This document shows positions 19,957 through 61,021 of a DNA stretch of 64,000 bases, piece after piece (position 1 is the stretch's first letter; each line of letters opens with the position of its first letter). The notes under the pieces were generated by a model. That model worked only from the letters and a program-made list of their open reading frames with translations, did no database searches and was not told the origin of the DNA. The stretch comes from a virus, in IMG/VR virus record IMGVR_UViG_3300040856_003054, positions 32,001 to 96,000 of that record, one strand, 5' to 3'. The position numbers and the translations under genes were made by a program.

Positions 19957-20853
19957 ATGGTAAATCCATATAGATTTTATACCTATGCCTATTTGCGTGA
20001 GGATAGAACTCCTTACTATGTTGGTAAGGGCACTGGAAAGAGAATATATTCAAAAGAAAAAAATATAAATCTCCCCAAAGATAAATCAAGAATAATCTTC
20101 CTCAAACAAAATATAACAGAAAAAGAAGCATTTAAGCACGAAATCTATATGATTGCCGTGTTTGGTAGAAAAGATTTAGGAACTGGTATTCTTTATAATA
20201 GAACTAATGGTGGTGATGGAATAAGTGGATTTAAACATAGTCAAAAATCTAAAAATGAAATGAGTGAAAAAAGAAGAGGTAAAAATAATGCATTTTATGG
20301 TAAAAAACATTTACCAGAAACAATAAAAAGATTAAGTGAAAATAAGAAAGGAAAATATGTTGGAGATAAAAATCCTTTGTTTGGTAAAAAACATTCACAA
20401 GAAACAAGAAATAAAATAAGTGAAGCAAATGCTGGAAAATATGTTGGAGATAAAAATCCTTTTTATGAAAAAAATCACTCACAAGAAACAAAAGATAAAA
20501 TAAGTAGAGCAAATAAAGGAAGAGTTCTATCTATTGAACTAAGAAATGAAATGAGTAAAAGAGTAAAAGGTGAGAATAATCCTATGTTTGGAAAAAATCA
20601 CTCACAAGAAACAAAAGATAAAATAAGTAAAGTAAGTAAAGGAAAAACTTGCTCCGATGAAATAAAACAAAAAATATCTTCCACACATAATAAACTTCTG
20701 CGTTTTATATCACCGACTGGAGAAGTTATAGAGGAATTCACTACAATTACTAAATTTTGTAAAAAATATAATTTACATAAATCCAATTTGATTAAATTGA
20801 TGAAAGGAAAAAGTAAAACTTGTAAAGGATGGACACTTTACAAACTGGAATAG
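19957..20853 (+). CDS. Free-standing GIY-YIG homing endonuclease with NUMOD3 repeats
   Basis: FYTYAYLREDRTPYYVGKG; repeated NP.(F/Y)GK.HSQETK.KIS; C-terminal HTH-like tail. Confidence 0.85.
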   Translation: MVNPYRFYTYAYLREDRTPYYVGKGTGKRIYSKEKNINLPKDKSRIIFLKQNITEKEAFKHEIYMIAVFGRKDLGTGILYNRTNGGDGISGFKHSQKSKNEMSEKRRGKNNAFYGKKHLPETIKRLSENKKGKYVGDKNPLFGKKHSQETRNKISEANAGKYVGDKNPFYEKNHSQETKDKISRANKGRVLSIELRNEMSKRVKGENNPMFGKNHSQETKDKISKVSKGKTCSDEIKQKISSTHNKLLRFISPTGEVIEEFTTITKFCKKYNLHKSNLIKLMKGKSKTCKGWTLYKLE

Positions 20854-20887
20854 GACACACCAAAATCTTGTATGAATGTCCTATAAT
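20831..20887 (+). promoter_or_regulatory. Palindrome-type early promoter overlapping the endonuclease 3' end
   Basis: GGACACTT-TACA-AACTGGAAT, TATAAT at 20882. Confidence 0.7.
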
Positions 20888-20914
20888 GACTTCATATACA
20901 ACAAAACCAATCCT

Positions 20915-21184
20915 ATGAGATTTAGAAACATAGAATTTAGATGGAGTAAATGCAACAACAAGTATGAACTCGTCAAGTGGAATACTCCAACAGAAGATAG
21001 TTTCTTCAAAGATCCAACTTGTTATGTGATTGCCTTCTTTGATAAAGACAAAGAGGGTTATAATATGAGAACTATATCTTCAAGATTTTTTGAAGATAAA
21101 GATGCATTCGTAGTGGGAAAATACGCAATTGAGTTTCTCAACGAAACTTTTGAAATTGAAAGACAAGAAGAAGAACTTAAATAA
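20915..21184 (+). CDS. Conserved hypothetical protein
   Basis: MRFRNIEFRW...; first ATG after the promoter. Confidence 0.7.
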   Translation: MRFRNIEFRWSKCNNKYELVKWNTPTEDSFFKDPTCYVIAFFDKDKEGYNMRTISSRFFEDKDAFVVGKYAIEFLNETFEIERQEEELK

Positions 21185-21192
21185 ATAAAGAT

Positions 21193-21248
21193 GCTTATGT
21201 GTGTCGCAACCAGAAGCAAAGATGGGGTGCTTTCGGGCACCTTTTCTT
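21193..21248 (+). ncRNA. Putative endonuclease-associated antisense sRNA, copy 2
   Basis: TAAATA at 21182; stem TGCTT/AAGCA; GTGTCGCAA complementary to leader TTGCGACAC; terminator GGTGC-TTTCGG-GCACC-TTTT; TATAAATA at 21250. Confidence 0.65.
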
Positions 21249-21285
21249 GTATAAATAGTATTGCGACACAACATAAAGCAGAACT

Positions 21286-22014
21286 ATGGAACTCAAAGAG
21301 TATCATTATGTCTATTATTCCTATGAGGAATATGGTAGAGGATATTTTGGTAGTAGAACTTGTAAATGCCTACCAGAAGAAGATATAAAGTATTTTGGTT
21401 CTTTTAGTGATAAGACATTCAAACCAACTCAAAAAATAATACTCAAAAGTGATTATGCTACAAGAGAAGAGGCATATGCCGATGAGATTATTTTACAACA
21501 ATACTACAAAGTAGTGGAAAATCCACACTTTGCTAATAGAGCATATCAAACTTCTTCAAAATTTCATAATGGAATGACGACAGAAAAAGCAAAAGAATTG
21601 GGAAATAAGACAAAAGAACTTGGTGTAGGTATTCATTCACTTACTTACGAACAAAGGAGTGAATATGGTAAAAAATCAACCGAAATAGCAAAAAAACTTG
21701 GTGTTGGACTTTATGGTTTTACAAAAGAACAAAGAAGTGAAAATGGTAAAAAATCAAAAGAACTTGGTGTTGGTATTTTTTCTTATACAAAAAAACAATT
21801 GAGTGAAAATGGGTTTAATGGTGGAAAAAAAGCATATGAAATGAAAGTTGGGGTTCACGCACTTACCAGAGAACAAATGAGTGAAAATTCTAAGAAAGTT
21901 GCCTCGCAAAAATGGAAATGTCTTGAAACTGGTTTCATTTCTAATGCTGGGGGACTTGCTTGTTATCAAAGAAAAAGAGGAATAGACACCTCCAAAAGAA
22001 TAAGATTATCATAA
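21286..22014 (+). CDS. Free-standing GIY-YIG homing endonuclease
   Basis: HYVYYSYEEYGRGYFGSR; C-terminal LGVG...T.EQ.SE.GKK repeats. Confidence 0.8.
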   Translation: MELKEYHYVYYSYEEYGRGYFGSRTCKCLPEEDIKYFGSFSDKTFKPTQKIILKSDYATREEAYADEIILQQYYKVVENPHFANRAYQTSSKFHNGMTTEKAKELGNKTKELGVGIHSLTYEQRSEYGKKSTEIAKKLGVGLYGFTKEQRSENGKKSKELGVGIFSYTKKQLSENGFNGGKKAYEMKVGVHALTREQMSENSKKVASQKWKCLETGFISNAGGLACYQRKRGIDTSKRIRLS

Positions 22015-22071
22015 GACACTTGGGAAACTGGCACAAGGGCATCTCCACAGGTGCCCTTTTTGGTCTATAAT
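22014..22071 (+). promoter_or_regulatory. Palindrome-type early promoter with terminator-like spacer hairpin
   Basis: AGACACTT-GGGA-AACTGGCAC, AAGGGCAT/GTGCCCTT-TTT, TATAAT at 22066. Confidence 0.75.
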
Positions 22072-22092
22072 GACTTCATAAGAAACAAACCG

Positions 22093-22401
22093 ATGATTGA
22101 AATCACATTTACAAGAGAAGAACTCCGTCATCTTTATGATGTTCTTCTTAGAAATAATCTTCAAGTCAAGCAATCAGTAATGAATAAAATTGATGAAGAA
22201 CTTATTGCCGATGAAATCTATGAACTTCTTGGTGATCTTGAGTGTTTGGATCCTACTCTTGATGAGGAATGGCAGAACAAACTATGGTATGATGACCCAG
22301 AAGATGAGCACACTATTGCTGTGAAACGAAACCGTGACCTGTGGAATCGTCAAACGATTGCTGAGCTCAAAACTCTTATTGGTAAACTTGAAGAAAAATG
22401 A
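22093..22401 (+). CDS. Hypothetical protein
   Basis: First ATG after the promoter. Confidence 0.65.
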   Translation: MIEITFTREELRHLYDVLLRNNLQVKQSVMNKIDEELIADEIYELLGDLECLDPTLDEEWQNKLWYDDPEDEHTIAVKRNRDLWNRQTIAELKTLIGKLEEK

Positions 22402-22571
22402 ACTACCTCTGCCTTGTTGATGGTCTTGTAGAATACGCCAGCACTTCTGAAAGTTCCTTTGCTCATTACCAACTGATGTATGCCGAAGAACACCAAGATG
22501 CTGATGTTCAGTATCTCACACTGACTGATGAAGAGTATGATGCCATGTTCCCTGTGGAGGATGAAGAATGA
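22398..22571 (+). CDS. Small acidic hypothetical protein (57 aa, not in the ORF track)
   Basis: MNYLCLVDGLVEYA...; ATGA overlaps at both ends. Confidence 0.65.
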   Translation: MNYLCLVDGLVEYASTSESSFAHYQLMYAEEHQDADVQYLTLTDEEYDAMFPVEDEE

Positions 22572-22828
22572 CTAACTGGAAAAAACTTATTCAACTAGAA
22601 ATGAATAGTTTTGATGAAACCTTTGATGATGTTGTGAGTTCTACTCTTACAAAAGAAGAACTCCTTGAAAATTTTGATGATGGTTATGGAGGAAGTGAAG
22701 GAGTTTCATTTACTCTTTGGACTACTAATCGTGTTTATTTCCCTGCGGTCTATGATGGTGCTGAATGGGTAGAAAGTGTATCACGCAATCCTGACGGAAA
22801 ACCAACACCTCATATTGGAGGACAATAA
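22568..22828 (+). CDS. Conserved phage protein
   Basis: FDDGYGG.EG..FT.WT..RVYFP..YDG.EWV.SV.RNP. Confidence 0.75.
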   Translation: MTNWKKLIQLEMNSFDETFDDVVSSTLTKEELLENFDDGYGGSEGVSFTLWTTNRVYFPAVYDGAEWVESVSRNPDGKPTPHIGGQ

Positions 22829-22830
22829 AA

Positions 22831-23076
22831 ATGAAACTCTTTCAATACGATAAAAAAGTTTGGGAAAATGGTGAAACTGACCGCACTTGGCAGTTTGGCA
22901 TCTTCAACAATCGTTCATTACTTTGGGTGAATTATGAAAATCCCAGTAGTTTAGTTCATAGTAATGGTGGATTTCACATCATGCTCTCATTTTTTACTTC
23001 TTCTTCTCTTTTTGGAGTAGATTTTCAAGTTGGTAAATTTGGTTTAAGTTTTCATTTCTTTACTGAATACTGTTGA
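22831..23076 (+). CDS. Hypothetical protein
   Basis: GGAGG RBS. Confidence 0.6.
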   Translation: MKLFQYDKKVWENGETDRTWQFGIFNNRSLLWVNYENPSSLVHSNGGFHIMLSFFTSSSLFGVDFQVGKFGLSFHFFTEYC

Positions 23077-23088
23077 GGAGTGGGATGA

Positions 23089-23289
23089 ATGAAAGTTTAT
23101 GATTACCGAATTGTAGAGAAACTTAATGTGGATACTATGAAACCTTATTTCATAATTCAAAAATACAATCTTCTTACACAAGAATATAACCTCCACTCAA
23201 ATGCACGTATTCAAACACTTGAAGAAGCACAAGAAGCAATACGACTAATCAGGAAATACAAAGAACCTATCTATCATTATGTGAAATGA
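23089..23289 (+). CDS. Hypothetical protein
   Basis: GAGGAG RBS. Confidence 0.65.
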   Translation: MKVYDYRIVEKLNVDTMKPYFIIQKYNLLTQEYNLHSNARIQTLEEAQEAIRLIRKYKEPIYHYVK

Positions 23290-23594
23290 CTAACACCGCA
23301 TACCAAATCTGGGAAGCATTCAAAGCAGAACTTACACAACCAGCAACAGATGATATGAAAGAAGCACTGGCATCTTCTATTCGTACTCTTGCAGAATTTG
23401 AAGACATCAAACCAGTTTCTGTTGGACCTTGTGATGATACTTATGGTAGATGGGATAGAATAGAAACTATATCTCAGCAAGATTATAACTACGAAAAAGC
23501 ATTAACAATAAAAAAATCACAAGTATCTACTTACAGAAAAATTCTTAGTATTGCTGATGAACTTGAAAACCTAAACACTTTGGAGATTAACTAA
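23286..23594 (+). CDS. Hypothetical protein (paralogue of 26936)
   Basis: AY..WEAFKAEL...TDDMKEALASSIR shared with 26936. Confidence 0.7.
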   Translation: MTNTAYQIWEAFKAELTQPATDDMKEALASSIRTLAEFEDIKPVSVGPCDDTYGRWDRIETISQQDYNYEKALTIKKSQVSTYRKILSIADELENLNTLEIN

Positions 23595-23932
23595 TGAAAT
23601 TTAATTATTATACAGAAGTTTTAAAAAATACATACTGTGAAGAATATAATTTTCACTTCATTTTAACCGAAGATGAAATTAGAAGGAATCTTCATACACG
23701 AGGACTTACTCTTAATTCTATATATGGTTTATTTCCACCAGATTCTCCTGATGATTATAGAATGAGAGCATCCATAGAAATTATTAGGGACTCTCTTTAT
23801 GGTGAGAATGTTGATTTAGGTATTGACTATAAGAAGAAGTATGAGGAACTTGTAGAACTTCTTGAACCATGTAAAATTGATGATATGCCCCCAAAAACAA
23901 CATTAAAAATGATTCTAAAATATAACAAATGA
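23594..23932 (+). CDS. Hypothetical protein
   Basis: TAATG overlap. Confidence 0.6.
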   Translation: MKFNYYTEVLKNTYCEEYNFHFILTEDEIRRNLHTRGLTLNSIYGLFPPDSPDDYRMRASIEIIRDSLYGENVDLGIDYKKKYEELVELLEPCKIDDMPPKTTLKMILKYNK

Positions 23933-24108
23933 GTTATCGTTGGTTAAAAACAGAAGACCTAGAAAATGCTATTAGGCATCAAAACATTATTAATTCCAGA
24001 GTGAAACGAGGAGAGATTGAACAACCGACAGAATATTCTTATGTTGTGTGTGGTTGTGGTGATCCAGGATGTGGATTTATGAGTATTCATACAAAAGACA
24101 ATCCTTGA
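23929..24108 (+). CDS. Small Cys-motif protein (CGCGDPGC; 59 aa, not in the ORF track)
   Basis: ATGA overlap; open to TGA at 24108. Confidence 0.55.
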   Translation: MSYRWLKTEDLENAIRHQNIINSRVKRGEIEQPTEYSYVVCGCGDPGCGFMSIHTKDNP

Positions 24109-24152
24109 ACTGCCCACTGACCTCCCAAAGGTCGGTGATTTTCCTGTATAAT
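24096..24152 (+). promoter_or_regulatory. Palindrome-type early promoter
   Basis: AGACAATC-CTTG-AACTGCCCA, hairpin CACTGACC/GGTCGGTG, TATAAT at 24147. Confidence 0.7.
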
Positions 24153-24175
24153 GATTTCATACACAAATAACCCAA

Positions 24176-24667
24176 ATGAAGCACAAACTTCTCCAGAACA
24201 TCACTGAATATCGCAACTGGGCATGGTATGTCTATCAGTATTGGTATAACCATAAAAGTACCTTAACTCTATCAATTCTTGCGACTGATAAGGATCGTGA
24301 TGTTCGTTGTTGGGTTGCAAAACACCCAAACACAACAACAGAAACTTTAACAGTTCTTGTGACTGATGAGTATTGGGATGTTCGTTATTGGGTTGCACAA
24401 CACCCAAACACATCACAAGAAACTCTAGCAATTCTTGTGACTGATGAGGATTGGGTTGTTCGTTGTGCGGTTGCACAACACCCAAACACATCACAAGAAT
24501 CTCTAGCAGTCCTTGCGACTGATAAGTATCCTGTTGTTCGTATTTGGGTTGCACAACACCCAAACACATCACAAGAAACTCTAGCAATTCTTGCGACTGA
24601 TATGGATTCTGTTGTTCGTCGTTGTGTTGCAAAACTCCCACCCACATCACAAGAAACAGACTCTTGA
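24176..24667 (+). CDS. Leucine-rich-variant (LRV)/HEAT-like repeat protein
   Basis: About five 26-aa repeats LA.L.TD....VR..VA.HPNTS.E, seen as 78-bp DNA repeats. Confidence 0.85.
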   Translation: MKHKLLQNITEYRNWAWYVYQYWYNHKSTLTLSILATDKDRDVRCWVAKHPNTTTETLTVLVTDEYWDVRYWVAQHPNTSQETLAILVTDEDWVVRCAVAQHPNTSQESLAVLATDKYPVVRIWVAQHPNTSQETLAILATDMDSVVRRCVAKLPPTSQETDS

Positions 24668-24743
24668 ACTGAATATGAAACAGTATGATGTCCCGAAGAA
24701 ACTCATTGAGTCTTCACAAGATGAGTCTCTTAAGGGTATTATG

Positions 24744-24800
24744 TGACACCTAAAGAACCGACCACTGACCTCCCAAAGGTCGGTGATTTTGTCGTATAAT
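24744..24800 (+). promoter_or_regulatory. Palindrome-type early promoter (near-duplicate of 24096)
   Basis: Shares CCACTGACCTCCCAAAGGTCGGTGATTTT with the 24096 copy; TATAAT at 24795. Confidence 0.7.
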
Positions 24801-24825
24801 ACTCTCATACACACAAACAACCCAA

Positions 24826-25104
24826 ATGACTTCCAAAATTCCTGCTTGTAAGAATTGTAAGCATTTTCAAGAAAGTCCTGATGAGATTTTCAGCACTTGT
24901 GCCCTTTATCAGTATGAGAAGGTTGATTACTTCAACGGCAAAGTGAGTGAGTATAATTGTCTTGCTCTTGCTATGAGGGACAGTGAAGACCATTGTGGTC
25001 GTGAAGGTAAGGACTTTGAGATGAAAGAGTTTGTAGAAGAGGAAGAAGATATTTCCTTCTGGGAATACTTCAAAGGATTTTTCACAAAGAGTTGGATGTT
25101 TTGA
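24826..25104 (+). CDS. Cys-rich hypothetical protein
   Basis: CKNCKHF...C...C...R....CGREGK.F. Confidence 0.7.
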   Translation: MTSKIPACKNCKHFQESPDEIFSTCALYQYEKVDYFNGKVSEYNCLALAMRDSEDHCGREGKDFEMKEFVEEEEDISFWEYFKGFFTKSWMF

Positions 25105-25106
25105 TT

Positions 25107-25283
25107 ATGACTGTTGCTGAAATCATTGAGAAACTCCATCAGTATCCACCTGATATGAGAGTTGAAATTACTGATGGATATAAGCTTCATTTCTATAGAG
25201 GTGATTTTGCTTTTCAACTCTTTGAGGGTGATGATGGAGAAACTTTTGTAGATATTGGTATTGGAGGATTTGATTATGACTGA
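25107..25283 (+). CDS. Hypothetical protein
   Basis: MTVAEIIEKL..YP.DM.V motif. Confidence 0.65.
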   Translation: MTVAEIIEKLHQYPPDMRVEITDGYKLHFYRGDFAFQLFEGDDGETFVDIGIGGFDYD

Positions 25284-25467
25284 ACAACAAGAAACATTTC
25301 TCATTAACAAACTCAAAGAAATTGCAGGTCAAAAAACTTGCTATGAGATGTATGGAGACTTTTATGATGCTGTTCCACAAGCATCAACAAGAATTTTTAC
25401 TGATGGAATTGATTATGGTAAAATCAATCTTTGTAGAGAACTTTTGAAAGATTTGGGTGATGATTGA
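25276..25467 (+). CDS. Hypothetical protein
   Basis: GGAGG RBS. Confidence 0.6.
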   Translation: MTEQQETFLINKLKEIAGQKTCYEMYGDFYDAVPQASTRIFTDGIDYGKINLCRELLKDLGDD

Positions 25468-25809
25468 CTTTCTCAAAGGATACCTATCCGTCATTATACT
25501 ATCTCTACTGATAGGCAAAGCAATTGTTCTTTCCACACCACCAGAATCTAAAGTTCATAATTGTATTCCAGCACAAAAAACTATTGTAAAATGACTAACG
25601 AAAAAATACTTGAACTTGCTGATGAATTGGAGGCACTCTAAATGAAAAACCTTGCTAACACTATTTTTATTTTAGTTTGGGTTACGGGTATGGTATTATC
25701 TCCCAATCTTCTTCTTAAAGGTGTCGCATTCTTTTTCCCACCATATTCACTTTGTGTTGTGGTTGAAAGAGTGATTACAACTTATGCTCCAGAACTTCTC
25801 AAATAATAT

Positions 25810-26022
25810 ATGAATAACCAAGAAGCAACAGCATCATTAGTTGCTACATTTTTTGCTATACTTTGTCTTGTTAGTTCTGCCTTTGGACTTCTCAATATGG
25901 GTTCTTATTTTGGAGCAAAAGAAGCAAAAAATCAAACCACAATTGAATGTATAGAAACACCTGAAAAATGTAAGCAAAGGTATGAGTATCTTAAACTTCG
26001 TGAAAAACTTGGAGAAAACTGA
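25810..26022 (+). CDS. Small membrane protein, CxExPxxCKxxYxYLKL family
   Basis: TM helix plus Cys pair; paralogous to 27365 and 27549. Confidence 0.7.
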   Translation: MNNQEATASLVATFFAILCLVSSAFGLLNMGSYFGAKEAKNQTTIECIETPEKCKQRYEYLKLREKLGEN

Positions 26023-26103
26023 TGAACTGGATGTGATGTTTAATGCTGGATGGGATGAATGTCTCAAAGAGATTGATGCTATTTGTGATGAATTGGAGGA
26101 ACT

Positions 26104-26346
26104 ATGAAAGAACAAGCACAAATAATAAGAGAAGTAGCACGACAAGCACTTTACAGCACTCCTAACGACCAAGAGTGTGAAGTCCCCATTATGGTTGCTA
26201 CTCTTAAAAATCTTCGTGAGCAACTTACCCTCCCATACGGTGCTAGTGTTTGGAAGGATGAAAAAGGTATGTGGTATGATGCTGGACGAAAAGATTGCCT
26301 AAAAGAAATTGATGGTATTATTGATGAATTGGAGGCACTAAAATGA
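26104..26346 (+). CDS. Hypothetical protein ending DELEALK
   Basis: GGAGG RBS. Confidence 0.65.
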   Translation: MKEQAQIIREVARQALYSTPNDQECEVPIMVATLKNLREQLTLPYGASVWKDEKGMWYDAGRKDCLKEIDGIIDELEALK

Positions 26347-26540
26347 CAAAACTCTACAATCGTCCTATGAACTTCTTTGAGAAACTTCATAGTGGTTGGT
26401 GGTGGATTGGGCAAATTTTTGGGGAATGGTGTTATACTATGTTTGACAAAAATGGAGAAGAGTTTGGAGGTTTCTTCTTTTATCTTCAAAGTGATTATGT
26501 TGCTTATGAACAGGATATGTATTACCAGGACACTTTCTAA
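26343..26540 (+). CDS. Hypothetical aromatic-rich protein
   Basis: GGAGG RBS; ATGA overlap. Confidence 0.6.
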   Translation: MTKLYNRPMNFFEKLHSGWWWIGQIFGEWCYTMFDKNGEEFGGFFFYLQSDYVAYEQDMYYQDTF

Positions 26541-26584
26541 ACTGGTACAAGACCTCACCACAAACCCTGTGAGTGCCTTATAAT
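26528..26584 (+). promoter_or_regulatory. Palindrome-type early promoter
   Basis: GGACACTT-TCTA-AACTGGTAC, TATAAT at 26579. Confidence 0.7.
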
Positions 26585-26607
26585 ACTCTTATACACACAG
26601 AAACCTG

Positions 26608-26928
26608 ATGACTGAACTTACTCCCGAAGCACAAACAGTTGTGGATGCTTATGAGCAAACTACTGATAAGTATGCTGCTCTTGCTGCTGTTCTTTGTGCT
26701 GCTATTGATATTGTAGTTCCTGAAGAAGCAGAGGCACCGAAGGCACAGTTTGATTGTCCTCCCCATAAGTTATACAGTTTTAGAAAAGATGAGGAAAGGT
26801 GGGGATATGACCATAAAGACTATTTGAGGAGGCAATTTGCTCAAAACAAACTGGATATTCGTTGGGAACAACGGCAACAAACTCGTGCTTTGATGCTTGC
26901 TATTATTACTGAACTTGAGATTAAGTGA
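26608..26928 (+). CDS. Hypothetical protein
   Basis: MTELTPEAQ.V.DAY...ALAAVL family. Confidence 0.65.
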   Translation: MTELTPEAQTVVDAYEQTTDKYAALAAVLCAAIDIVVPEEAEAPKAQFDCPPHKLYSFRKDEERWGYDHKDYLRRQFAQNKLDIRWEQRQQTRALMLAIITELEIK

Positions 26929-26935
26929 ATGACTA

Positions 26936-27145
26936 ATGACTGACGCAGCATACAAAGTTTGGGAAGCATTCAAGGCAGAATTGATTGTAGAACCCACAGA
27001 TGATATGAAAGAAGCACTAGCATCTTCTATTCGTGAGGTTGTTATTGAAGTAATACTTAAGTATATGCAGTATGCCGAATGGGAAATAGTCAATAAAATT
27101 ATGGAAGATATTAATGAACTTGCTGATGAATTGGAGGCACTATGA
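26936..27145 (+). CDS. Hypothetical protein (paralogue of 23286)
   Basis: Shared N-terminal ~33 aa; ends ADELEAL. Confidence 0.7.
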   Translation: MTDAAYKVWEAFKAELIVEPTDDMKEALASSIREVVIEVILKYMQYAEWEIVNKIMEDINELADELEAL

Positions 27146-27363
27146 AATTTGACCCAGATTGGATACTTTTGACTATCCCTGTTTGTGTAATCGTTGCTGC
27201 TGGTGTTCTCACCTATGATGCTCAACAACAACGAGTAACATTCCAACAAACATACAACAAGAACCTGGAGTGTCGTCAATCACTCAAAGGACAAACGATG
27301 GCAAGAGTGAATGAAATTTGTGGTCCTGTTCCACAAATCAAAGATTTTACTGGGGGAAACTGA
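27142..27363 (+). CDS. Small membrane protein
   Basis: N-terminal TM segment and two Cys. Confidence 0.65.
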   Translation: MKFDPDWILLTIPVCVIVAAGVLTYDAQQQRVTFQQTYNKNLECRQSLKGQTMARVNEICGPVPQIKDFTGGN

Positions 27364-27364
27364 A

Positions 27365-27559
27365 ATGTGTAAGGTTGAATTGGATGAACTTATTTGTTTT
27401 ATTGTTATTCCATTCACTTTTATGGGTATGATGGCATTTGCTAGCTGGCAAGGATACAAAAAAGGAATGAATGAAACTCTTATTTTGTGTGTAGAAAATC
27501 CCCAACAGTGTAAAACAATTTATGATCATTTGAAGTTGGAGAAAACTGATGTACGATAA
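27365..27559 (+). CDS. Small membrane protein, CxExPxxCK family
   Basis: TM plus LCVENPQQCKTIYDHLKL. Confidence 0.65.
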   Translation: MCKVELDELICFIVIPFTFMGMMAFASWQGYKKGMNETLILCVENPQQCKTIYDHLKLEKTDVR

Positions 27560-27743
27560 TGATAATGGTAAAAGCACTTTTATACTATTTCTTATTTTAG
27601 TCCCTGTAGTCGGTATATTTCTTGTGGGTTCGTCACTAGGTTATGATAATGGTAAGAATACTACCATTAAGTATTGTATTGAGCAACCCAAAGAATGTAA
27701 AACCACTTATGATTATCTAAAACTTCAGGAGAACCAGAAATGA
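27549..27743 (+). CDS. Small membrane protein, CxExPxxCK family
   Basis: TM plus YCIEQPKECKTTYDYLKL. Confidence 0.7.
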   Translation: MYDNDNGKSTFILFLILVPVVGIFLVGSSLGYDNGKNTTIKYCIEQPKECKTTYDYLKLQENQK

Positions 27744-28543: not shown

Positions 28544-28545
28544 CT

Positions 28546-46543: not shown

Positions 46544-46546
46544 TAG

Positions 46547-53204: not shown

Positions 53205-54041
53205 ATGAAATATACATCCACAAGTTTATATCGCTATGCTGGTGGTAAAAACAAAATGAAAGATGAGATCATTAAGATCATTGATGAGGTTCATCCAAAT
53301 CTAGAAAGAATGATGTCACCTTTCATGGGTGGTGGATGTATCGAACTCTCACTTGCAGCAAGAGGTGTAAAGGTTCAAGCATATGACTTGTTCCGACCTC
53401 TTGCTGATTTTTGGGAGATTCTTACAACTGAAGGTGGAAAAAGAATTGCAGAAGAAGCAGCAAAGCACTATCCAGTGAGAGATAGAGAACACTACAAATC
53501 ATTTCTACCACTGCTTGAGAGTGACGATAAGTTCACTCGGGCGTGGTCTTTTTATATTTCTATCAAATGTGCATTTAGCGGAGATCTTGGTCACACATCA
53601 GAATCATCAAGAAAGAATCTCTGTGCTGCGAGTTTGATTAAACTTGCAGGATTCCATAATCCAAACTTCTCATTCTCTTTTGGAGATTGCTTTGAGACAA
53701 TACCAAAGCATCAGAATGACTTTTTATACTTGGATCCACCATACTATAAGACAACTTCATACTATTATGGTATTGATGGAAGCACACATGAAGGATTCAA
53801 TCACGATAAACTTGCAGAGATCTTGAAAGAACATGAAGGTGGATTTGTGATGTCTTATGACAACACAGATTATCTCAAAGAACTCTACAAGGATTGGACA
53901 GAGTTTCGCTATCTTGAATTTGATTATCAGATGGCGGGTGATGTAAGTCGTAGGGGTAAAAAGACCGAACTTATTCTCATTAAAGAACCCAAAATCAAAC
54001 CAGAATCTAATGTAAATGTCTTGGAGAGTTTATTGTATTGA
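53205..54041 (+). CDS. dam: DNA adenine methyltransferase (D12/Dam class)
   Basis: RYAGGK, SPFMGGG, YLDPPY, F.HDKL, SYDN and TELILI motifs. Confidence 0.9.
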   Translation: MKYTSTSLYRYAGGKNKMKDEIIKIIDEVHPNLERMMSPFMGGGCIELSLAARGVKVQAYDLFRPLADFWEILTTEGGKRIAEEAAKHYPVRDREHYKSFLPLLESDDKFTRAWSFYISIKCAFSGDLGHTSESSRKNLCAASLIKLAGFHNPNFSFSFGDCFETIPKHQNDFLYLDPPYYKTTSYYYGIDGSTHEGFNHDKLAEILKEHEGGFVMSYDNTDYLKELYKDWTEFRYLEFDYQMAGDVSRRGKKTELILIKEPKIKPESNVNVLESLLY

Positions 54042-54098
54042 GGACACTTGGAGAAGTGTCCTACAGGTGCTTGAGGGGGTCGCAGGAGACCCTATAAT
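54041..54098 (+). promoter_or_regulatory. Palindrome-type early promoter (perfect 9-4-9 copy)
   Basis: AGGACACTT-GGAG-AAGTGTCCT, TATAAT at 54093. Confidence 0.8.
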
Positions 54099-56419: not shown

Positions 56420-56450
56420 ATGGTATAAATAATAATACCCCCGCAAAAGA

Positions 56451-57227
56451 ATGATGAACTATCTAAAAGTTTATTGTAACCTCATCAGGAAAGCAGAGAA
56501 TAGAACTCCACCTGAAGGTTATACGGAAAAACATCATATATTTCCAAAGAGCATTTATGGAAATAACAATAGAGTTGTAATTTTCACTGCAAGAGAGCAC
56601 TATATTGCTCACGCATTATTGGAAAAAGTTTGTATCCAAAGGTATGGATTGAAAGATAAAAGAACTATAAAAATGATTTATGCCCATAGTGGAATGAAAG
56701 GTAATAATGGTTATATCAATTCCACTTTATATGAAGGTGCAAGAAAAAGAAGAAGTGATAATATGAAAGGAAAACCTTTGTATATTCCAACTGAAAAGCA
56801 TAAAGAAGAAATCAGACAAAGAAGATTGGGAACCAAAGCATCCGAAGAAACAAAAAGAAAAATGAGCGAATCGCATAGAGGTAAAAAATGTCCTCCAAGA
56901 AGTGAAGAATGGAAAAAAAGGGTGGGTGAGAGAATGAAAAAATATGTTGGAGAAAAAAATCCTTTTTATGGAAAAAAACATACAGAAGAAACTAAAAGAA
57001 AGATAAGTGATTCGAAAAAAGGTAAAAAGTATGATAAGAAAATAATAAAAAAATCAAAATACTTATGCAAAGTTAAAAATTCCAAAGGAGAAGTATTTTC
57101 TACCACAAATTTAAAAAATTTTTGTAGAGAAAATAATCTAAACCCCAGTTGCATGTATAGAATAATATCTGGCAAACAAATTCAACATAAAGGATGGGAA
57201 ATTGTTGAAAGAATTAAAATAGAATGA
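56451..57227 (+). CDS. Free-standing HNH homing endonuclease with NUMOD3 repeats
   Basis: YTEKHHIFPKS...TAREHYIAHALL; NPFYGKKHTEETKRKIS. Confidence 0.85.
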   Translation: MMNYLKVYCNLIRKAENRTPPEGYTEKHHIFPKSIYGNNNRVVIFTAREHYIAHALLEKVCIQRYGLKDKRTIKMIYAHSGMKGNNGYINSTLYEGARKRRSDNMKGKPLYIPTEKHKEEIRQRRLGTKASEETKRKMSESHRGKKCPPRSEEWKKRVGERMKKYVGEKNPFYGKKHTEETKRKISDSKKGKKYDKKIIKKSKYLCKVKNSKGEVFSTTNLKNFCRENNLNPSCMYRIISGKQIQHKGWEIVERIKIE

Positions 57228-57493
57228 AAAAGAAAAAAGGATTTCTTTATTATGTTTACTGTGCTTTGGGTGAAAAATCTCATCCACATTGCAACAAAAC
57301 AGCAGATAGAGTTGCTCTTATTCGTTTATTGATTACTCTACAAATTTTAATCACTAATGGTTTTATTGTTGCTAATGCCATCCGACATTGGAATGATAAA
57401 ACAACCATCCAAGTTGTGATTGATTCTTCAACTCTTCCAGAATATCAAACACCAGAAGCAATAAAAACTAATAAATCCTTTGAGTTCGAATAA
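57224..57493 (+). CDS. Conserved cyanophage membrane protein
   Basis: ALGEKS......AD.VA.IR......TN.FIVA..IRHW. Confidence 0.7.
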   Translation: MKKKKGFLYYVYCALGEKSHPHCNKTADRVALIRLLITLQILITNGFIVANAIRHWNDKTTIQVVIDSSTLPEYQTPEAIKTNKSFEFE

Positions 57494-57512
57494 ATAATCA
57501 AAAACAAGAAAG

Positions 57513-57929
57513 ATGCTGACATTTAGAGAGTTCTACGAAATCTGTGAAGGTAAGAAACCTGATACTCCTCCACACGCAGTTCCTGGGACTGTGAATAGAG
57601 ATTCTAGTGGCACTCTAACATATACTCTTCAGCGTTATGATGGACCAAAGGTTAAACCATCAAAGAAAGAAATTGAGAACCAAGTATTAGACCAGAGTGG
57701 TAGAAACAAAGTAGAAAAACATGCCAAGAGAGTGGCAAAGTCAATTAAAAAAATTGAAGAAGATATTGAAACAAGACGTAGAGAGTTGAGACAGAGACAA
57801 AAAGATCAAATGTCAGCACAAAGAGAACGTGTTGCAGGTTATCATGCAGCACAACAAGAGAAAAAAGAAAAGGAATCAGAAAGAGAAGAACTTAAAAAAG
57901 AAATCAAGAGAGAACTCAAGGACAGTTGA
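57513..57929 (+). CDS. Putative capsid internal protein with capsid-targeting N-terminus
   Basis: MLTFREFYEICE resembles the T4 CTS (MKTYQEFIAE); TAAATA at 57491. Confidence 0.6.
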   Translation: MLTFREFYEICEGKKPDTPPHAVPGTVNRDSSGTLTYTLQRYDGPKVKPSKKEIENQVLDQSGRNKVEKHAKRVAKSIKKIEEDIETRRRELRQRQKDQMSAQRERVAGYHAAQQEKKEKESEREELKKEIKRELKDS

Positions 57930-57976
57930 GGAACCGTCCACCATTCTCACACAAGCACCTTAATCTCCTGTATATT
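57920..57976 (+). promoter_or_regulatory. Palindrome-type early promoter
   Basis: GGACAGTT-GAGG-AACCGTCCA, TATATT at 57971. Confidence 0.65.
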
Positions 57977-58136: not shown

Positions 58137-58343
58137 ATGACTGACACTGTTAATGTTCTTCCTCACATCCGAGAACTGAAAGATACTTGGCGTCGTCAAG
58201 ATTTCAGTTTCACTAAATCGCAGAAAGAAGAATACGATCTCTTGATTGCTGCTCGTCGTGAAAGGGTAAAACAACATTATAAAGAAGGAAAAGTTTGCAC
58301 AATCAGCAAATCTGCAATGGACAAACTTAAAGAAGATAACTAA
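58137..58343 (+). CDS. Conserved cyanophage hypothetical protein
   Basis: EL...WR.QDF..T..Q...YD.L..ARRERV. Confidence 0.7.
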   Translation: MTDTVNVLPHIRELKDTWRRQDFSFTKSQKEEYDLLIAARRERVKQHYKEGKVCTISKSAMDKLKEDN

Positions 58344-58351
58344 ATAATGAT

Positions 58352-58409
58352 GCCTGAAGTTGACTGACATCTCTACAGGCAGAGGAGGAGCAGAAATGCT
58401 CCTTTTCTT
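58352..58409 (+). ncRNA. Putative endonuclease-associated antisense sRNA, copy 8
   Basis: TAAATA at 58341; stem TGCCTG/CAGGCA; loop AAGTTGACTGAC complementary (12/12) to leader GTCAGTCAACTT; terminator AGGAGCA-GAAA-TGCTCCT-TTT; TATAAATA at 58411. Confidence 0.7.
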
Positions 58410-58447
58410 GTATAAATACTTAAGTCAGTCAACTTAAGAGCAGAACT

Positions 58448-59140
58448 ATGGTCAAAAATCCATATAGATTTTATACCTATGCCTATTTGCGTGAGGATAG
58501 AACTCCTTATTACATAGGTAAGGGTAGTGGAAGAAGAATATATGATAAAAATGGAAGACCTTGTGGTAAACCGAAAGATAAATCCAGAATTATTTTCTTA
58601 AAGCAAAATCTAACCGAAGAAGAAGCATTCAAACACGAAATCTATATGATTTCTGTGTTTGGTAGAAAAGATTTGGGGACAGGTATTCTTCATAATAAAA
58701 CCGATGGAGGTGATGGAGTTTCTGGGGTAATAGTTAGTGAAGAAACAAGAGAAAAATTAAGAAAATCATCTACAAAATATAATAATGAAGGTCAAAGAAA
58801 ATTGGCAAACAAAAAAACTCATAAAAATTATTATCTAAAGAATAAAGAAAAAATATCACGATACTATAAAGAAAAATATAAGAAAATGAGTTCTGATTTG
58901 GAATGGATGGAGAATCAAAGATTAAAACAAAGAATACCTAAAGAAAATCAAAAAACAAATAGATTGTGGAAAACTTGGAAAATAACTTTCAGTGATGGTA
59001 GAATATTGGAAATGACTGGATTATATAATTGGTGTAAAAATAATGGATATAGTGATGGGTTAGTTTATCAGGTAGCAAAAGGCACCAGAAATAAACATAA
59101 AGATATTGTGTCAGTAGAACAACTGACCACTTACTCTTGA
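58448..59140 (+). CDS. Free-standing GIY-YIG homing endonuclease
   Basis: FYTYAYLREDRTPYYIGKG; C-terminus like those of 41591 and 28991. Confidence 0.85.
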   Translation: MVKNPYRFYTYAYLREDRTPYYIGKGSGRRIYDKNGRPCGKPKDKSRIIFLKQNLTEEEAFKHEIYMISVFGRKDLGTGILHNKTDGGDGVSGVIVSEETREKLRKSSTKYNNEGQRKLANKKTHKNYYLKNKEKISRYYKEKYKKMSSDLEWMENQRLKQRIPKENQKTNRLWKTWKITFSDGRILEMTGLYNWCKNNGYSDGLVYQVAKGTRNKHKDIVSVEQLTTYS

Positions 59141-59165
59141 TTTTATTCCCAATACCCGATATACT
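59108..59165 (+). promoter_or_regulatory. Palindrome-type early promoter overlapping the endonuclease 3' end
   Basis: GTGTCAGTA-GAAC-AACTGACCA, TATACT at 59160. Confidence 0.65.
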
Positions 59166-59186
59166 GAAAATGTCAGATACATAAAA

Positions 59187-60086
59187 ATGACTAAAAATCT
59201 TCACCTTGAACATCCTTGTGATAGCATCCTGACAGGAGATTTAAGTGTCTTGGATTGGTTTCATGAACCCAACTCCACTATCAGCACTAAGATGGATGGA
59301 AGTCCAGCATTAGTTTATGGAACTAATCCTGCAAATGGAAAGTGGTTCTGTGGAACAAAAAGTGTATTCAACAAAATAAAGATTAAAATAGCACACTCTC
59401 ATGAAGAAATTGATCAGTTTTACACTGGGAAGGTAGCAGAAATCCTACATCTTTGTTTTGACTATCTTCCTCGTACAAAATCAATTATTCAATGTGACTG
59501 GATCGGTGTAGGAGGTTCTCAAGAATACAAACCAAATACTATTACTTATCGTTTTCCGCAGGTAGTTAAAGAGAAAATCATTGTCGCACCTCACACAACT
59601 TATGGTGGCGGTGATGATCTCCGTGATGTATTTGCTGCTCCTCTGTGCAGCAAACTAATCAGCACAAAACACTGCAAATTCGTGCAACCTCAAGTGGAAC
59701 TGAATCCTTATCGTGAAGATTTGGAGGATGTGTGTAAGTTTGCCAAGCAAATGAGCACTCTATGTGAGTTTGTGACTGCTCGCAAAGCATTAGAAATCAA
59801 AAAGGAAATAAACAACTGCATTAGGGAGCAACGGGTCGTCAATGAAGATGAAATTGCAGAAAAATGTGATTGTGATAGAAATTTGATTAGGTTGTGGAAG
59901 TTAGTGTATTCAATCAAGACAGACATGTTCATGTTCATTCACGAAATGGATCAGATTGAATGTTCTATCAACGGTGAAGATAGTTTCCATGAGGGTTATT
60001 GTATCTCAAACAAATACGGTATGTATAAAGTCGTAGATAGAGAAGTTTTCTCATACAATAATTTCGTGACACCTAAAACTTGGTAG
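59187..60086 (+). CDS. Conserved cyanophage protein with ligase/nucleotidyltransferase-like motifs (DUF6267-like)
   Basis: KNLHLEHP.D, TKMDGSPA (KxDG), GTKSVFNK, EGY and KVVDR..FS..NF. Confidence 0.7.
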   Translation: MTKNLHLEHPCDSILTGDLSVLDWFHEPNSTISTKMDGSPALVYGTNPANGKWFCGTKSVFNKIKIKIAHSHEEIDQFYTGKVAEILHLCFDYLPRTKSIIQCDWIGVGGSQEYKPNTITYRFPQVVKEKIIVAPHTTYGGGDDLRDVFAAPLCSKLISTKHCKFVQPQVELNPYREDLEDVCKFAKQMSTLCEFVTARKALEIKKEINNCIREQRVVNEDEIAEKCDCDRNLIRLWKLVYSIKTDMFMFIHEMDQIECSINGEDSFHEGYCISNKYGMYKVVDREVFSYNNFVTPKTW

Positions 60087-60094
60087 GTGTCTTT

Positions 60095-60121
60095 AGACCA
60101 CCTTCGGGTGGTCTTTTTTTT
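60095..60121 (+). terminator. Intrinsic terminator with cUUCGg loop
   Basis: AGACCACC-TTCG-GGTGGTCT plus T-tract, abutting TATAAATA at 60121. Confidence 0.9.
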
Positions 60122-60149
60122 ATAAATATCTAAAAAAGTATTGGGTAAA

Positions 60150-60953
60150 ATGGCATCAAATAAGACATTTGCGGAGTTCATGGAGATTTGTGAGAAGTTT
60201 TCGATGGCAGCAGACACATCGAAACCACAATCAGCAAAACCAACTAAACTTCCAAAAAGTCGTGAAAGAAATGTAGGAACGCACGATGATTGGAAAGATA
60301 AAGTACCAACTGAATGGAATGATACGACAACTGAACAAAAAAAGAAAAATAAATTAAGATCAAGAGCAAGTGCAGTTGTTGGTACACAGCAAAGACAAGA
60401 TGTTGAAACTGGTGTAAGAAAAGAGGAAGCACAGTTAGATGAACTTCGTATCACAAGAATGTCGCCAGAGAAGCAAGAAGTAAAGAGACGTGCTAAAAAC
60501 ATCAAAGACATTAGAACAAAGAGAGAAACACTTGCTGCATTGATGAGACATGCAGAACTTCAAAAGAAAGGATTGGCAGATGAAGTTGAGTATGATGGTG
60601 AGAATGTTGATGAAGTATTGATGGTAACTCCTGCAAGAAAGAAACCAACCAAGAAAGTTGTAAAGAGTGTTGTCAAGATAGAAAAACCAGATCCAAGTGA
60701 TCCTGATTATGTAAGAAAGCAGAGAGCATATGTCAAATCAAAGCAGCAAGAGGAAATGGTTGACTATGAAAGATTAAGAAGTGGTGCAGAAGCAGCAACT
60801 GATAGAGCAGCAGCAGTAAAGAAAGCAAAACAACAAAGACAACAAAGTGATGCAGAAGCAGCAAGAAGTGCATTTAGAACAAAAGGTGTTCCATTTAGTG
60901 ATGCAAAAGGTTCTGGTCACATTGTAAATGGTAAGAAAGTATATGCCAGTTGA
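60150..60953 (+). CDS. Putative capsid internal (poly)protein with capsid-targeting N-terminus
   Basis: KTFAEFMEICE; internal LDE/VDE sites; highly charged; late promoter. Confidence 0.6.
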   Translation: MASNKTFAEFMEICEKFSMAADTSKPQSAKPTKLPKSRERNVGTHDDWKDKVPTEWNDTTTEQKKKNKLRSRASAVVGTQQRQDVETGVRKEEAQLDELRITRMSPEKQEVKRRAKNIKDIRTKRETLAALMRHAELQKKGLADEVEYDGENVDEVLMVTPARKKPTKKVVKSVVKIEKPDPSDPDYVRKQRAYVKSKQQEEMVDYERLRSGAEAATDRAAAVKKAKQQRQQSDAEAARSAFRTKGVPFSDAKGSGHIVNGKKVYAS

Positions 60954-61021
60954 GATTCTGTCACATCATCTTGTTTTTTGAGTCAAAATCTGTTATTCTA
61001 ATCAAGTAGCAAAACTTTTTC

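Follow-up and report, generated by a model that had tools for sequence, protein, structure and literature searches.

The window analysed here, a 64,000-nucleotide stretch of viral DNA, contains genes with late-promoter motifs, many of them nuclease genes, that repeatedly end at or inside one palindrome, which raises the question of what this palindrome is and whether the genes in front of it are exchanged there. The first-pass annotation had proposed that it is the right-hand recombination joint of an integron-like array, or even a cleavage or homing target, and had set against this the null that operon ends are simply the only neutral sites. The phage is a relative of T4-like cyanophages in which selfish nucleases, together with a few other late genes, end early units.

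The palindrome and the early cassette

The palindrome, GACACTT-N4-AACTGGCAC, is real; it forms the upstream dyad of an early-promoter/terminator cassette that occurs repeatedly. Allowing up to three mismatches, the window contains 14 matches to it where 0.49 are expected, and the exact dyad is present in at least 120 viral contigs. The cassette runs from the 20-bp dyad through a GC hairpin with a T-run, which overlaps the −35 box and the spacer, to a −10 box; all cassettes have the dyad, and the hairpins vary by subtype. Every dyad listed for the window has a −10-like hexamer 29–31 nt downstream, and in a set of 444 dyads 184 of the 207 TATAAT occurrences begin 30 or 31 nt past the dyad. Terminator-like sites number 19 against 8.9±3.5 expected, of which six are hairpins of cassettes and four lie in the 5′ regions of nuclease genes, while the region's best sigma-70-like match (11/12) lies inside the cassette at 35856. 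On sequence grounds we infer that the cassette has promoter and terminator activity and that it would close one early transcription unit and open the next, as a PeSL does.

PeSLs (promoter-early stem-loops) are found in the T4-type phages RB49/phi1, T4/PST and KVP40/nt-1 (Arbiol et al. 2010, PMC2839356; Comeau et al. 2014, PMC4122927). They too are repeats that combine a sigma-70-type early promoter with a stem-loop, are densely spaced in variable early regions and lie at the borders of insertions, deletions and replacements between related phages. Unlike them, the present cassette has a rigid 20-bp dyad 30–31 nt before the −10 box in place of the AT-rich upstream part, and its hairpin overlaps the −35 box and spacer, whereas the PeSL stem-loop lies upstream of the promoter. 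The lineage also differs from the PeSL phages in its relation to T4-like cyanophages; for one cyanophage, S-PM2, PeSL density was judged low (PMC4503421). Related arrangements are thus already known in T4-type phages, and the one described here is a variant with a repeated terminator-promoter cassette.

Late units and the genes in front of cassettes

Twelve late units lie in the window, all on the + strand like the cassettes. Each has a late-promoter motif upstream, which by our reading touches or overlaps the upstream stop codon in eight of the 12, in agreement with the earlier remark that a left-end TAAATA usually overlaps the preceding gene. Unit 1 (19854–20853) has a 5′ regulatory cassette (CTAAATA at 19854 overlapping the upstream stop, GC hairpin at 19893, TATAAATA at 19921) followed by nuclease gene 19957–20853, which has four NUMOD3 domains, an I-HmuI-like domain and a PHROG match to homing endonuclease; its final codons, up to the ORF end at 20853 (WTLYKLE), contain the dyad 20832–20851 of an early cassette (20832–20887) with −10 box TATAAT at 20882–20887. 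In unit 2 (21177–22014), the nuclease-like gene 21286–22014, a paralogue of other nuclease genes, has a 5′ cassette made up of TTAAATA at 21177, which overlaps the upstream stop, a hairpin at 21224 and TATAAATA at 21250. The early cassette behind this gene (22015–22071), resident in relatives, begins at the very next base after the stop with dyad 22015–22034, followed by a terminator-like hairpin (22035–22058) and a −10 box (22066–22071).

Just 1 nt separates stop and dyad in the following three units. Unit 3 (28882–29638), with TATAAATA at 28882 and 28953 and nuclease gene 28964–29638, is followed by a cassette at 29640–29695 (dyad 29640–29659, −10-like TATGAT 29690–29695). In unit 4 (35056–35854), nuclease gene 35159–35854 is preceded by a 5′ cassette with CTAAATA at 35056, which overlaps the upstream stop, a hairpin at 35095 and TATAAATA at 35123. 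The 5′ cassette of unit 5 (36806–37744) has TATAAATA twice, at 36806, where it overlaps the upstream stop, and at 36890, with a hairpin at 36853, and leads to nuclease-like gene 36923–37744. Both units precede early cassettes of a nuclease-linked subtype, one at 35856–35912 (dyad 35856–35875, hairpin 35876–35901 with TTGAAA in its loop and classed as a terminator-like site, −10 box 35907–35912) and the other at 37746–37802 (dyad 37746–37765 with the right-half variant GGAAC, hairpin 37766–37791, −10 box 37797–37802).

Two units adjoin a dyad of which only the right half is present. Unit 6 (38705–40983) is a GC-rich island (50–59% GC) with TATAAATA at 38705, a tail-protein-like gene at 38736–40517 (CBM_4_9; PHROG tail protein, 1.9e-82) and two small ORFs extending to 40983; the cassette 40984–41029 retains half-dyad 40984–40992 and a −10 box at 41024–41029. 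Unit 8 (46544–48309) comprises gene 46600–48309, which has no assigned function, preceded by a terminator hairpin and by CTAAATA at 46575, and its cassette (48310–48353) has half-dyad 48310–48318 and −10-like TATACT at 48348–48353. In two further units the nuclease frame translates the dyad within its coding end. Unit 7 (41486–42226), whose 5′ cassette (ATAAATA at 41486, TATAAATA at 41558) provides the upstream stop and precedes HNH-type nuclease gene 41591–42226, divides a gene into an N-terminal piece (41272–41493) and a C-terminal piece (42276–42506) in which the start is new and a repeat of ~20 residues has diverged; the promoter carried with it (42196–42252) has dyad 42196–42215, read as VSVEELAQ, and −10-like TATTAT at 42247–42252. 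Unit 11 (58340–59140) likewise provides the upstream stop through its 5′ cassette (CTAAATA at 58340, TATAAATA at 58411), and its nuclease gene 58448–59140 reads a degenerate dyad, 59110–59130, as VSVEQLTT, with −10-like TATACT at 59160–59165 (together 59110–59165).

In units 10 and 12 the stop lies within a degenerate dyad. Unit 10 (57490–57929; ATAAATA at 57490 overlapping the upstream stop, gene 57513–57929) runs into a cassette at 57921–57976 (21-nt dyad 57921–57941, −10-like TATATT 57971–57976), and unit 12 (60087–60953; terminator hairpin, TATAAATA at 60121, gene 60141–60953) into one at 60945–60999 (dyad 60945–60964, −10-like hexamer within 60993–60999). Unit 9 (56424–57227; TATAAATA at 56424, HNH-type nuclease gene 56451–57227) is an exception, with a stop that overlaps the start of the next gene and no cassette 3′ of it. 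All the abutting, read-through, half-dyad and internal stop coordinates given by the first-pass annotation therefore hold, as does its single exception, and two of its gene labels are not confirmed: genes 57513–57929 and 60141–60953, which it called internal-protein genes, have, respectively, no PHROG match and only a weak one to a family of unknown function, and the endonuclease genes 21286 and 36923, which have no Pfam, PHROG or PDB match, are rated nuclease-like only through shared domains and a shared 5′ cassette.

Counting the window and its 3′ flank, which adds nuclease gene 67726–68490, there are 13 late units, comprising nine nuclease or nuclease-like genes and four others. A cassette follows 11 of the 13, compared with 13 of 133 ordinary genes (Fisher p = 1.5e-8); the flank gene, just outside the window, joins 56451 as the second nuclease gene with no cassette behind it. 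This concentration of nuclease genes at cassettes could suggest that the dyad, or the stop–dyad junction, is itself the site that the nucleases recognize or cleave, so that they home directly to cassettes. We regard such homing as highly improbable, given that the same dyad stands at the end of nuclease genes whose C-terminal domains belong to three unrelated families, that the 13 cassettes behind ordinary genes persist, though such an enzyme would cut them, and that the spacing from dyad to −10 box is rigid, as for a promoter element. Moreover, free-standing T4 nucleases are reported to cut hundreds to thousands of bp from their own gene (Edgell, Gibb and Belfort 2010, PMC2988022).

The flush position of the stops is a separate matter. 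Ordinary early genes end in the same way, with stop 26540 inside dyad 26529–26548, stop 33451 inside dyad 33443–33462 (hairpin 33463–33485 next) and a perfect-palindrome variant at 54042–54061 directly 3′ of the DNA methyltransferase gene 53205–54041. Across 199 cassettes, 131 of the upstream frames, whatever their kind, have their stop in the interval −5 to +12 relative to the first base of the dyad, and in this genome 10 of the 13 ordinary genes preceding a cassette lie within −13 to +3. Flush or overlapping stops are a general packing habit of the lineage and no nuclease signature, so that flushness alone is uninformative. If illegitimate events place inserts at any position and only those at transcription-unit ends persist, the cassette need have no role in recombination, and because genes already adjoin the dyad, any surviving insert must do so too. 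The equal frequency with which ordinary genes adjoin or overlap the dyad favours such pure selection, as does 56451, which shows that insertion elsewhere occurs.

Cassettes and insert boundaries in relatives

Homologues of 36923 were retrieved without regard to the dyad, yielding 57 related loci, 55 with a readable stop. The dyad lies at the stop in 27 of the 55, and in 17 of these 27 it starts exactly 1 nt past it. Of 38 nuclease genes, 20 are followed by the hairpin subtype with TTGA in its loop, and of 56 other genes, 2 (p = 3e-8, although the Fisher tests overstate independence because the loci are related and partly retrieved via the nuclease itself). The GGAAC right-half variant, which on a cleavage-target reading could be a site-protecting change, is found in 14 of 38 nuclease-linked dyads and 1 of 56 others. 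Over all loci, the downstream flanks of the 22 copies of the nuclease-linked subtype fall into 16 different clusters, and of 802 pairs with similar nuclease 3′ ends just 14 are still similar at +450 nt. Pure selection leaves unexplained both a nuclease-specific subtype in 16 downstream contexts and the uniform 1-nt gap. Six of the 22 linked copies have a downstream flank cluster in common with the cassette before gene 35935, and copies of the subtype with no nuclease gene exist too, for example before the L058 relative of 35935; common descent from a single locus may therefore account for some of the association.

Gene 21286 is missing from the same slot in L016, L030, L053 and L096, and at these four empty sites the upstream stop adjoins the same cassette that follows 21286. 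The alignment places 21286 exactly between the upstream stop codon and an already-present cassette. For 58448 there is one empty site, in L025, where a cassette with the full dyad separates the same two neighbours; 46600 also has one, in L030, with the same neighbours, the L025 slot being occupied by a 25%-identical gene. The neighbours of 56451 are adjacent without the nuclease in L058. Boundaries in relatives do not scatter away from the palindrome, and at empty sites the inserts lie exactly between stop and dyad. The part of the null that survives is that ordinary genes adjoin the dyad alike; since the stop touches the dyad in the 21286 empty sites, no other neutral position existed there.

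The pieces 41272 and 42276 are one ORF in L058, L067, L044 and L178, and in the first three the gene split here by 41591 is intact, with no cassette at that place. The split hints that the target of the nuclease lies inside the neighbouring gene, contrary to homing at the dyad. L178 has an 85%-identical copy of nuclease 41591 at a different position; the left end and the dyad are common to both, divergence begins right after the dyad, and the L178 nuclease frame continues to a stop inside the −10 box. A promoter arriving with the nuclease inside a gene, the L178 homology break and a left-half-only dyad remnant after the nuclease stop in L126 are likewise not accounted for by selection at unit ends, an explanation that we consider distinctly less than probable but worth keeping in view.

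Homology breaks fall right after the dyad or at its centre. A crossover just past the dyad is indicated by two comparisons (the 21286 empty sites and L178), one of which hinges on a single-base difference. Breaks at the centre recur as right-half-only dyads (40984, 48310, and also in L025 and L165), the L126 remnant and in-frame fusions (41591 and 58448), and could point to an integron-like, site-specific system in which a dyad-binding protein catalyses or directs exchange there. Like integron attC/attI arrays, the region has small genes separated by imperfect palindromes. Unlike them, it has palindromes at a fixed distance from promoters, and each cassette bears its own promoter, which integron cassettes do not; the 136-kb record, estimated to be 64% complete, yielded no integrase and no other tyrosine or serine recombinase. 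In addition, stops are commonly placed in the N4 centre, so the half dyads may be mere coding overlap. An integron-like array, as first suggested, is thus scarcely credible for this phage.

Routes of insertion and free-standing nucleases

Taken together, we consider it fairly probable that the palindrome is an early-promoter dyad, that late units come to lie before cassettes and that exchange occurs within the cassette. Late units mostly start with a terminator-like hairpin and a late promoter of their own, so that an early promoter immediately behind them would make their presence tolerable; this tolerance may be why 11 of the 13 stand directly upstream of a cassette. The comparison with relatives shows two routes. 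By one, a nuclease gene is inserted precisely after a stop codon and before a cassette already resident there; by the other, the gene takes its cassette, or the dyad at the least, along to new locations, among them the interior of a gene. As the dyad is in all cassettes and the hairpins are variable, homologous crossovers would tend to fall in or next to the dyad, and ordinary homologous recombination between cassettes could make it a right-hand joint without a dedicated recombinase. The earlier joint idea is partly supported in this form, by the boundaries at stop and dyad and the breaks after or within it, with homologous exchange within the cassette as the simplest route, as proposed for PeSLs. 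Cassette-free junctions retain the same neighbour in 129 of 636 observations and cassette junctions in 13 of 162; gene order is poorly kept throughout the region, and cassettes are therefore not the sole break points.

The units resemble the free-standing homing endonucleases seg and mob of T4 and its relatives, which Edgell, Gibb and Belfort (2010, PMC2988022) describe as intergenic and variably present, with late promoters, an RNA hairpin over the ribosome-binding site, promoters of downstream genes embedded in or adjoining the nuclease coding end, and one case of a split host gene. Set against that description, the present phage has a single, repeated type of cassette as the downstream promoter, a distinct subtype of this cassette moves with the nuclease genes, and nuclease frames enter the dyad in frame, in L178 as far as the −10 box.

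A repeated unit of dyad, hairpin and −10 box

The palindrome singled out in the first-pass annotation can be written GACACTT-N4-AACTGGCAC, a 20-bp imperfect dyad, and the window contained 14 matches to it at three mismatches or fewer, compared with 0.49 expected. Perfect forms of either half also exist, for example at 54042–54061 and in the tandem arrays of three loci fetched from related viral contigs (L049, L055 and L100), and the exact dyad was present in at least 120 viral contigs. The dyad belongs to a larger repeat unit, the cassette, in which it is followed by a GC-rich hairpin with a T-run and then by a −10 box. After dropping dyads lying 60–400 nt or nearer to a locus end and exact duplicate contexts, TATAAT started 30 or 31 nt past the dyad in 184 of 207 occurrences (444 non-redundant dyads from the genome and all fetched loci); among the 155 exact matches listed, it lay 26–34 nt after the dyad in 83. 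Hand curation of this genome listed 27 cassettes in the interval from 19 to 70 kb (window coordinates).

In 20 kb, consensus scans found 19 terminator-like sites where 8.9±3.5 were expected, six of the 19 being cassette hairpins, and placed the best promoter-like match (TTGAAA-17-TATAAT) in the cassette at 35856, with its −35 box within the hairpin loop. A simple promoter scan showed no overall enrichment (85 sites vs 76±10). From the fixed distance to the −10 box, the terminator-like hairpins and the promoter-like match, we infer that the cassette may act as a combined terminator and early promoter. Dyad-plus-promoter units also occurred in tandem in L049, L055, L100 and L113, at a spacing of ~58 nt and with TTGACA shortly past the dyad, some of them carrying a near-palindromic variant based on the right half of the dyad. 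At 24668–24825 of the window, a 158-nt gap contains a possible ORF of ~23 codons whose stop shares bases with the beginning of a dyad-like element, and this element precedes a second copy of the hairpin found at 24115.

The window corresponds to bases 32001–96000 of one 136,140-bp viral record estimated to be 64% complete. A near-identity DNA search of a phage collection found nothing, and protein searches returned distant cyanophage relatives only, at 48–59% identity; the best matches of the helicase at 48627–49853 (Synechococcus phage S-SRM01, 47.7% identity) and of the protein at 59187–60086 (SynMITS9220M01, 59% identity) were both from T4-like cyanophages. Beyond ~17.5 kb almost all genes, the majority of them small, lie on the + strand, and the small early proteins of the window had relatives of ~50–65% identity in many of the fetched contigs, in strongly reshuffled order. 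The island at 38736–40983 has 50–59% GC in a genome of ~35% GC and looks like a recent import; a doubled late promoter precedes its coding sequences, which comprise a gene for a tail-protein-like product that has a carbohydrate-binding domain, plus two small ORFs.

Late-promoter units and ordinary genes at the cassettes

The first-pass annotation had placed the ends of nearly all late-promoter inserts at or inside the palindrome, and its coordinates were all borne out. Four stops (22014, 29638, 35854 and 37744) abut the dyad at 0–1 nt, three nuclease frames, ending at 20853, 42226 and 59140, read through it, two units (ending at 40983 and 48309) abut a dyad reduced to its right half, and two stops (57929 and 60953) fall inside degenerate dyads. 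Late-promoter motifs preceded 12 of the 12 units in the window and, by inspection, overlapped or touched the upstream stop codon in 8 of them. When the thirteenth unit (67726–68490), just outside the window, was included, a cassette followed 11 of 13 late units, compared with 13 of 133 ordinary genes (Fisher p = 1.5e-8).

The flush ends themselves were general. Upstream open frames of at least 50 codons stopped at −5 to +12 of the first base of the dyad in 131 of 199 non-redundant cassettes, with peaks immediately ahead of the dyad, on its two opening bases and at the N4 centre. In this genome 13 ordinary genes, a DNA methyltransferase gene among them, precede a cassette, and 10 of these stopped within −13 to +3. 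Since flush stops are the rule for all genes at these dyads, they are by themselves no evidence of a joint; what is special to the late units is their concentration at cassettes, not the abutment. Neighbouring genes were kept in 13 of 162 observations at cassette junctions, five of the 13 being a fused gene, and in 129 of 636 at junctions lacking a cassette; gene order is poorly conserved throughout the region, cassette or not.

Eleven nuclease or nuclease-like genes, named here by their start positions, are related to one another; they lie within 19957–59140 of the window and at −2605 to −1913, 7803–8291 and 67726–68490 (window coordinates). They combine at least three N-terminal and at least three C-terminal domain families in different pairings, which suggests domain shuffling within one genome. 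NUMOD3 was found in five of the eight nuclease-like proteins of the window that were scanned, and the same five matched PHROG homing-endonuclease families. The matches of protein 58448 were limited to PHROGs of unknown function that are common to those homing-endonuclease-matching proteins, while proteins 21286 and 36923 had no family match in Pfam or PHROG and nothing meaningful in sequence searches of solved structures.

All 11 genes have in common a 5′ unit of ~100 nt. A late-promoter-like motif and one arm come first, followed by a GC hairpin that has a T-run; then come a second late promoter (inner motif TATAAATA) and, immediately ahead of the start codon, the complementary arm. Judged from its sequence, we read this unit as a probable T4-type late promoter lying inside a hairpin that would hide the ribosome-binding site, an arrangement described for T4 in passages of PMC2988022. 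The arms vary between copies yet remain complementary within each copy (36806–36922 compared with 41486–41590; also L178:2090–2195). The late promoter and leader of gene 46600 (46575–46600) are nearly identical in L025 (reverse strand, near 10950), where the proteins are only 25% identical.

Empty sites and cassettes that accompany nuclease genes

In four related loci (L016, L030, L053 and L096), the stop codon of the relative of gene 20876–21184 touches the dyad of the same cassette that follows nuclease-like gene 21286 in the window, indicating that 21286 was inserted exactly between this stop and a resident cassette. Similarly, the neighbours of nuclease 58448 are separated by a full cassette in L025, and in L030 a cassette lies directly behind the neighbour of gene 46600; in L058 the neighbours of nuclease 56451 are adjacent, without a cassette. 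The slot upstream of gene 20876 held a cassette without a nuclease gene in some relatives and no cassette in others, and therefore has no bearing on whether cassette and nuclease travel together. The slot after 38462 showed a −10-like box and no clear dyad in L058, so it was not counted as an empty site. Four sequencing runs, all made up of contigs, were also compared over 19500–38500, and among the 15 joints listed, of 74 in total, none came from a contig joining an empty site. Several joints between two cassettes, or between a gene end and a nuclease 5′ cassette, in run X5 had short sides and a likeness below 95 and were set aside as cross-matching of repeats or relatives. In run X6, RNA contigs matched early genes for the most part and nuclease genes scarcely at all, a pattern that was set aside because contigs give no measure of expression.

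Homologues of 36923 were fetched regardless of the dyad in 57 loci, 55 of which had a readable stop after two run-off frames were dropped. A dyad lay at the stop in 27 of these 55, starting 1 nt after it in 17 and at 2 nt in 5, and abutting directly in 2; the remaining 28 had no dyad at the stop and ended in other contexts. The left half of the dyad alone was retained after the nuclease stop in L126, and the left half with a shortened promoter in L127. A hairpin subtype with a TTGA loop followed 22 of 43 nuclease genes and 8 of 373 other genes across all loci, and in loci chosen without the dyad it lay behind 20 of 38 nuclease genes compared with 2 of 56 others; the right-half variant GGAAC showed a similar bias (14 of 38 vs 1 of 56). 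The downstream flanks of the 22 nuclease-linked TTGA copies belonged to 16 different clusters. The subtype also occurred without a nuclease gene, in particular before the L058 relative of gene 35935, and 6 of the 22 linked copies had a downstream flank cluster in common with the window cassette before gene 35935.

Nuclease 41591 and its relative in L178 were compared after dropping 2 of 45 loci in which the nuclease frame ran off the end. The L178 copy, 85% identical, follows the intact form of the gene that 41591 splits in the window. The two copies agree in their left boundary, at the late-promoter motif, and in the dyad; immediately past the dyad they diverge, the L178 copy having a different cassette body. 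The L178 frame (L178:2196–2855) crosses the right half of the dyad and the entire cassette body and stops within the −10 box. More broadly, among 103 nuclease 3′ ends, only 14 of 802 similar pairs remained similar to +450 nt. The query had a dyad in 651 pairs, and for 641 of these the alignment broke off at −30 to +99 relative to the start of the dyad; as the pairs are not independent and cassettes are alike anyway, this result shows only that downstream contexts differ. The loci display two routes to the arrangement: in one the nuclease gene is inserted before a cassette already resident, and in the other it arrives together with a cassette.

In the window, the nuclease unit at 41486–42226 cuts a small early gene into two pieces, 41272–41493 and 42276–42506, which in L058, L067 and L044 belong to a single reading frame uninterrupted by a cassette; intact relatives lie at L058:3284–3619 and L178:1764–2087. 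The downstream piece uses a new start and repeats, in diverged form, ~20 residues from the region of the break. The split gene and its repeat hint that nuclease 41591 may have its target in the neighbouring gene.

Proposed mechanism and relation to known systems

Most late units appear to open with a terminator-like hairpin and to have an early promoter directly behind them; with such a hairpin in front, early genes behind the unit would need a new early promoter. Because the dyad is found in every cassette type while the hairpins differ, the crossovers of ordinary homologous recombination would tend to fall within the dyad or next to it. Recombination between cassettes with such a crossover would correspond to the idea put forward for the promoter-early stem-loop (PeSL) cassettes of T4-type phages, as given in parts of PMC2839356 and PMC4122927. 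The suggestion that the palindrome is the right-hand recombination joint is partly upheld, in so far as the dyad marks the joint, as seen in the empty sites and the break after the dyad in L178; a crossover point just past the dyad comes from two comparisons only, the empty sites of 21286 and L178.

The stronger proposals made for the palindrome fared less well. It is unlikely to be a nuclease cleavage or homing target, given that three different C-terminal domain families end there and that 13 cassettes are kept behind ordinary genes; moreover, free-standing T4 nucleases are reported, in passages of PMC2988022, to cut far from their own gene. An integron-like array is also disfavoured. Integrons have an IntI-type tyrosine recombinase and promoterless cassettes ending in attC, neither of which is present here: tyrosine (PF00589) and serine (PF00239) recombinases had no match in the record, estimated to be 64% complete, and each palindrome lies 30–31 nt before its own −10 box.

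A more far-reaching scheme, which we regard as rather improbable, is that the nuclease genes are composite mobile modules, with a late-promoter and hairpin cassette on the left and, on the right, a portable early-promoter dyad serving as a universal downstream homology arm, so that they could hop to any of ~27 cassettes or carry the promoter into a new site, even splitting a gene. If true, such a portable arm would explain the spread of 11 related nuclease genes within one genome and point to a way, open to testing, in which aquatic phages could shuffle genes. To our knowledge, a cassette-hopping form of homing has not been described for free-standing endonucleases.

The cassettes resemble PeSLs in combining a sigma-70-like early promoter with a stem-loop and T-run (here with a −10 box at a fixed 30–31 nt, predicted from sequence), in being concentrated as many copies in a variable early region (here 27 between 19 and 70 kb) and in lying at the borders of indels or replacements between related phages (here the empty sites and the L178 break). 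The PeSL stem-loop lies just upstream of the promoter, with an AT-rich region before it, according to figure legends in PMC4122927; unlike it, the hairpin here overlaps the −35 box and spacer, and the conserved dyad is upstream. Mini-circles formed by recombination between flanking cassettes are a further PeSL feature. In cyanophage S-PM2, PeSL density was judged low in a portion of PMC4503421. The nuclease genes in turn resemble free-standing homing endonuclease genes in being present or absent between conserved neighbours (empty sites for 21286, 58448 and 56451) and in the putative late promoter in a hairpin over the ribosome-binding site, the sequence features of which occur in 11 of 11 copies.

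PeSL cassettes (excerpts of PMC2839356 and PMC4122927) and promoters embedded in the coding ends of the T4 seg and mob genes (excerpts of PMC2988022) are already in print. In the portions of the PeSL and T4 homing endonuclease literature covered, we did not meet late-promoter nuclease units so tightly paired with a single type of repeated cassette, the nuclease-linked cassette subtype or nuclease frames fused into the dyad. The present data carry the idea of promoter–terminator cassettes as points of exchange beyond coliphages and vibriophages, to a lineage akin to the T4-like cyanophages. They also suggest a way for selfish nuclease genes to be accommodated in the tightly packed transcription programme of a phage.

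A full-text search with the right-half string and 'phage' found no paper printing the dyad, the matches listed all being on 'macrophage'. The perfect right-half palindrome, the one form searched, occurred at 15 loci in cellular genomes of mixed bacteria, none in a cyanobacterial record; by a rough estimate this is about the number expected by chance, and it gives no hint that precisely this site is used by a host. The site of a PlmA-type host regulator, CGRE1, is a palindrome of 21–22 nt starting 55–57 nt upstream of the transcription start, as stated in a section of PMC6191309. By our own count the dyad spans about −62 to −43, the comparison with CGRE1 being one of position, not of sequence.
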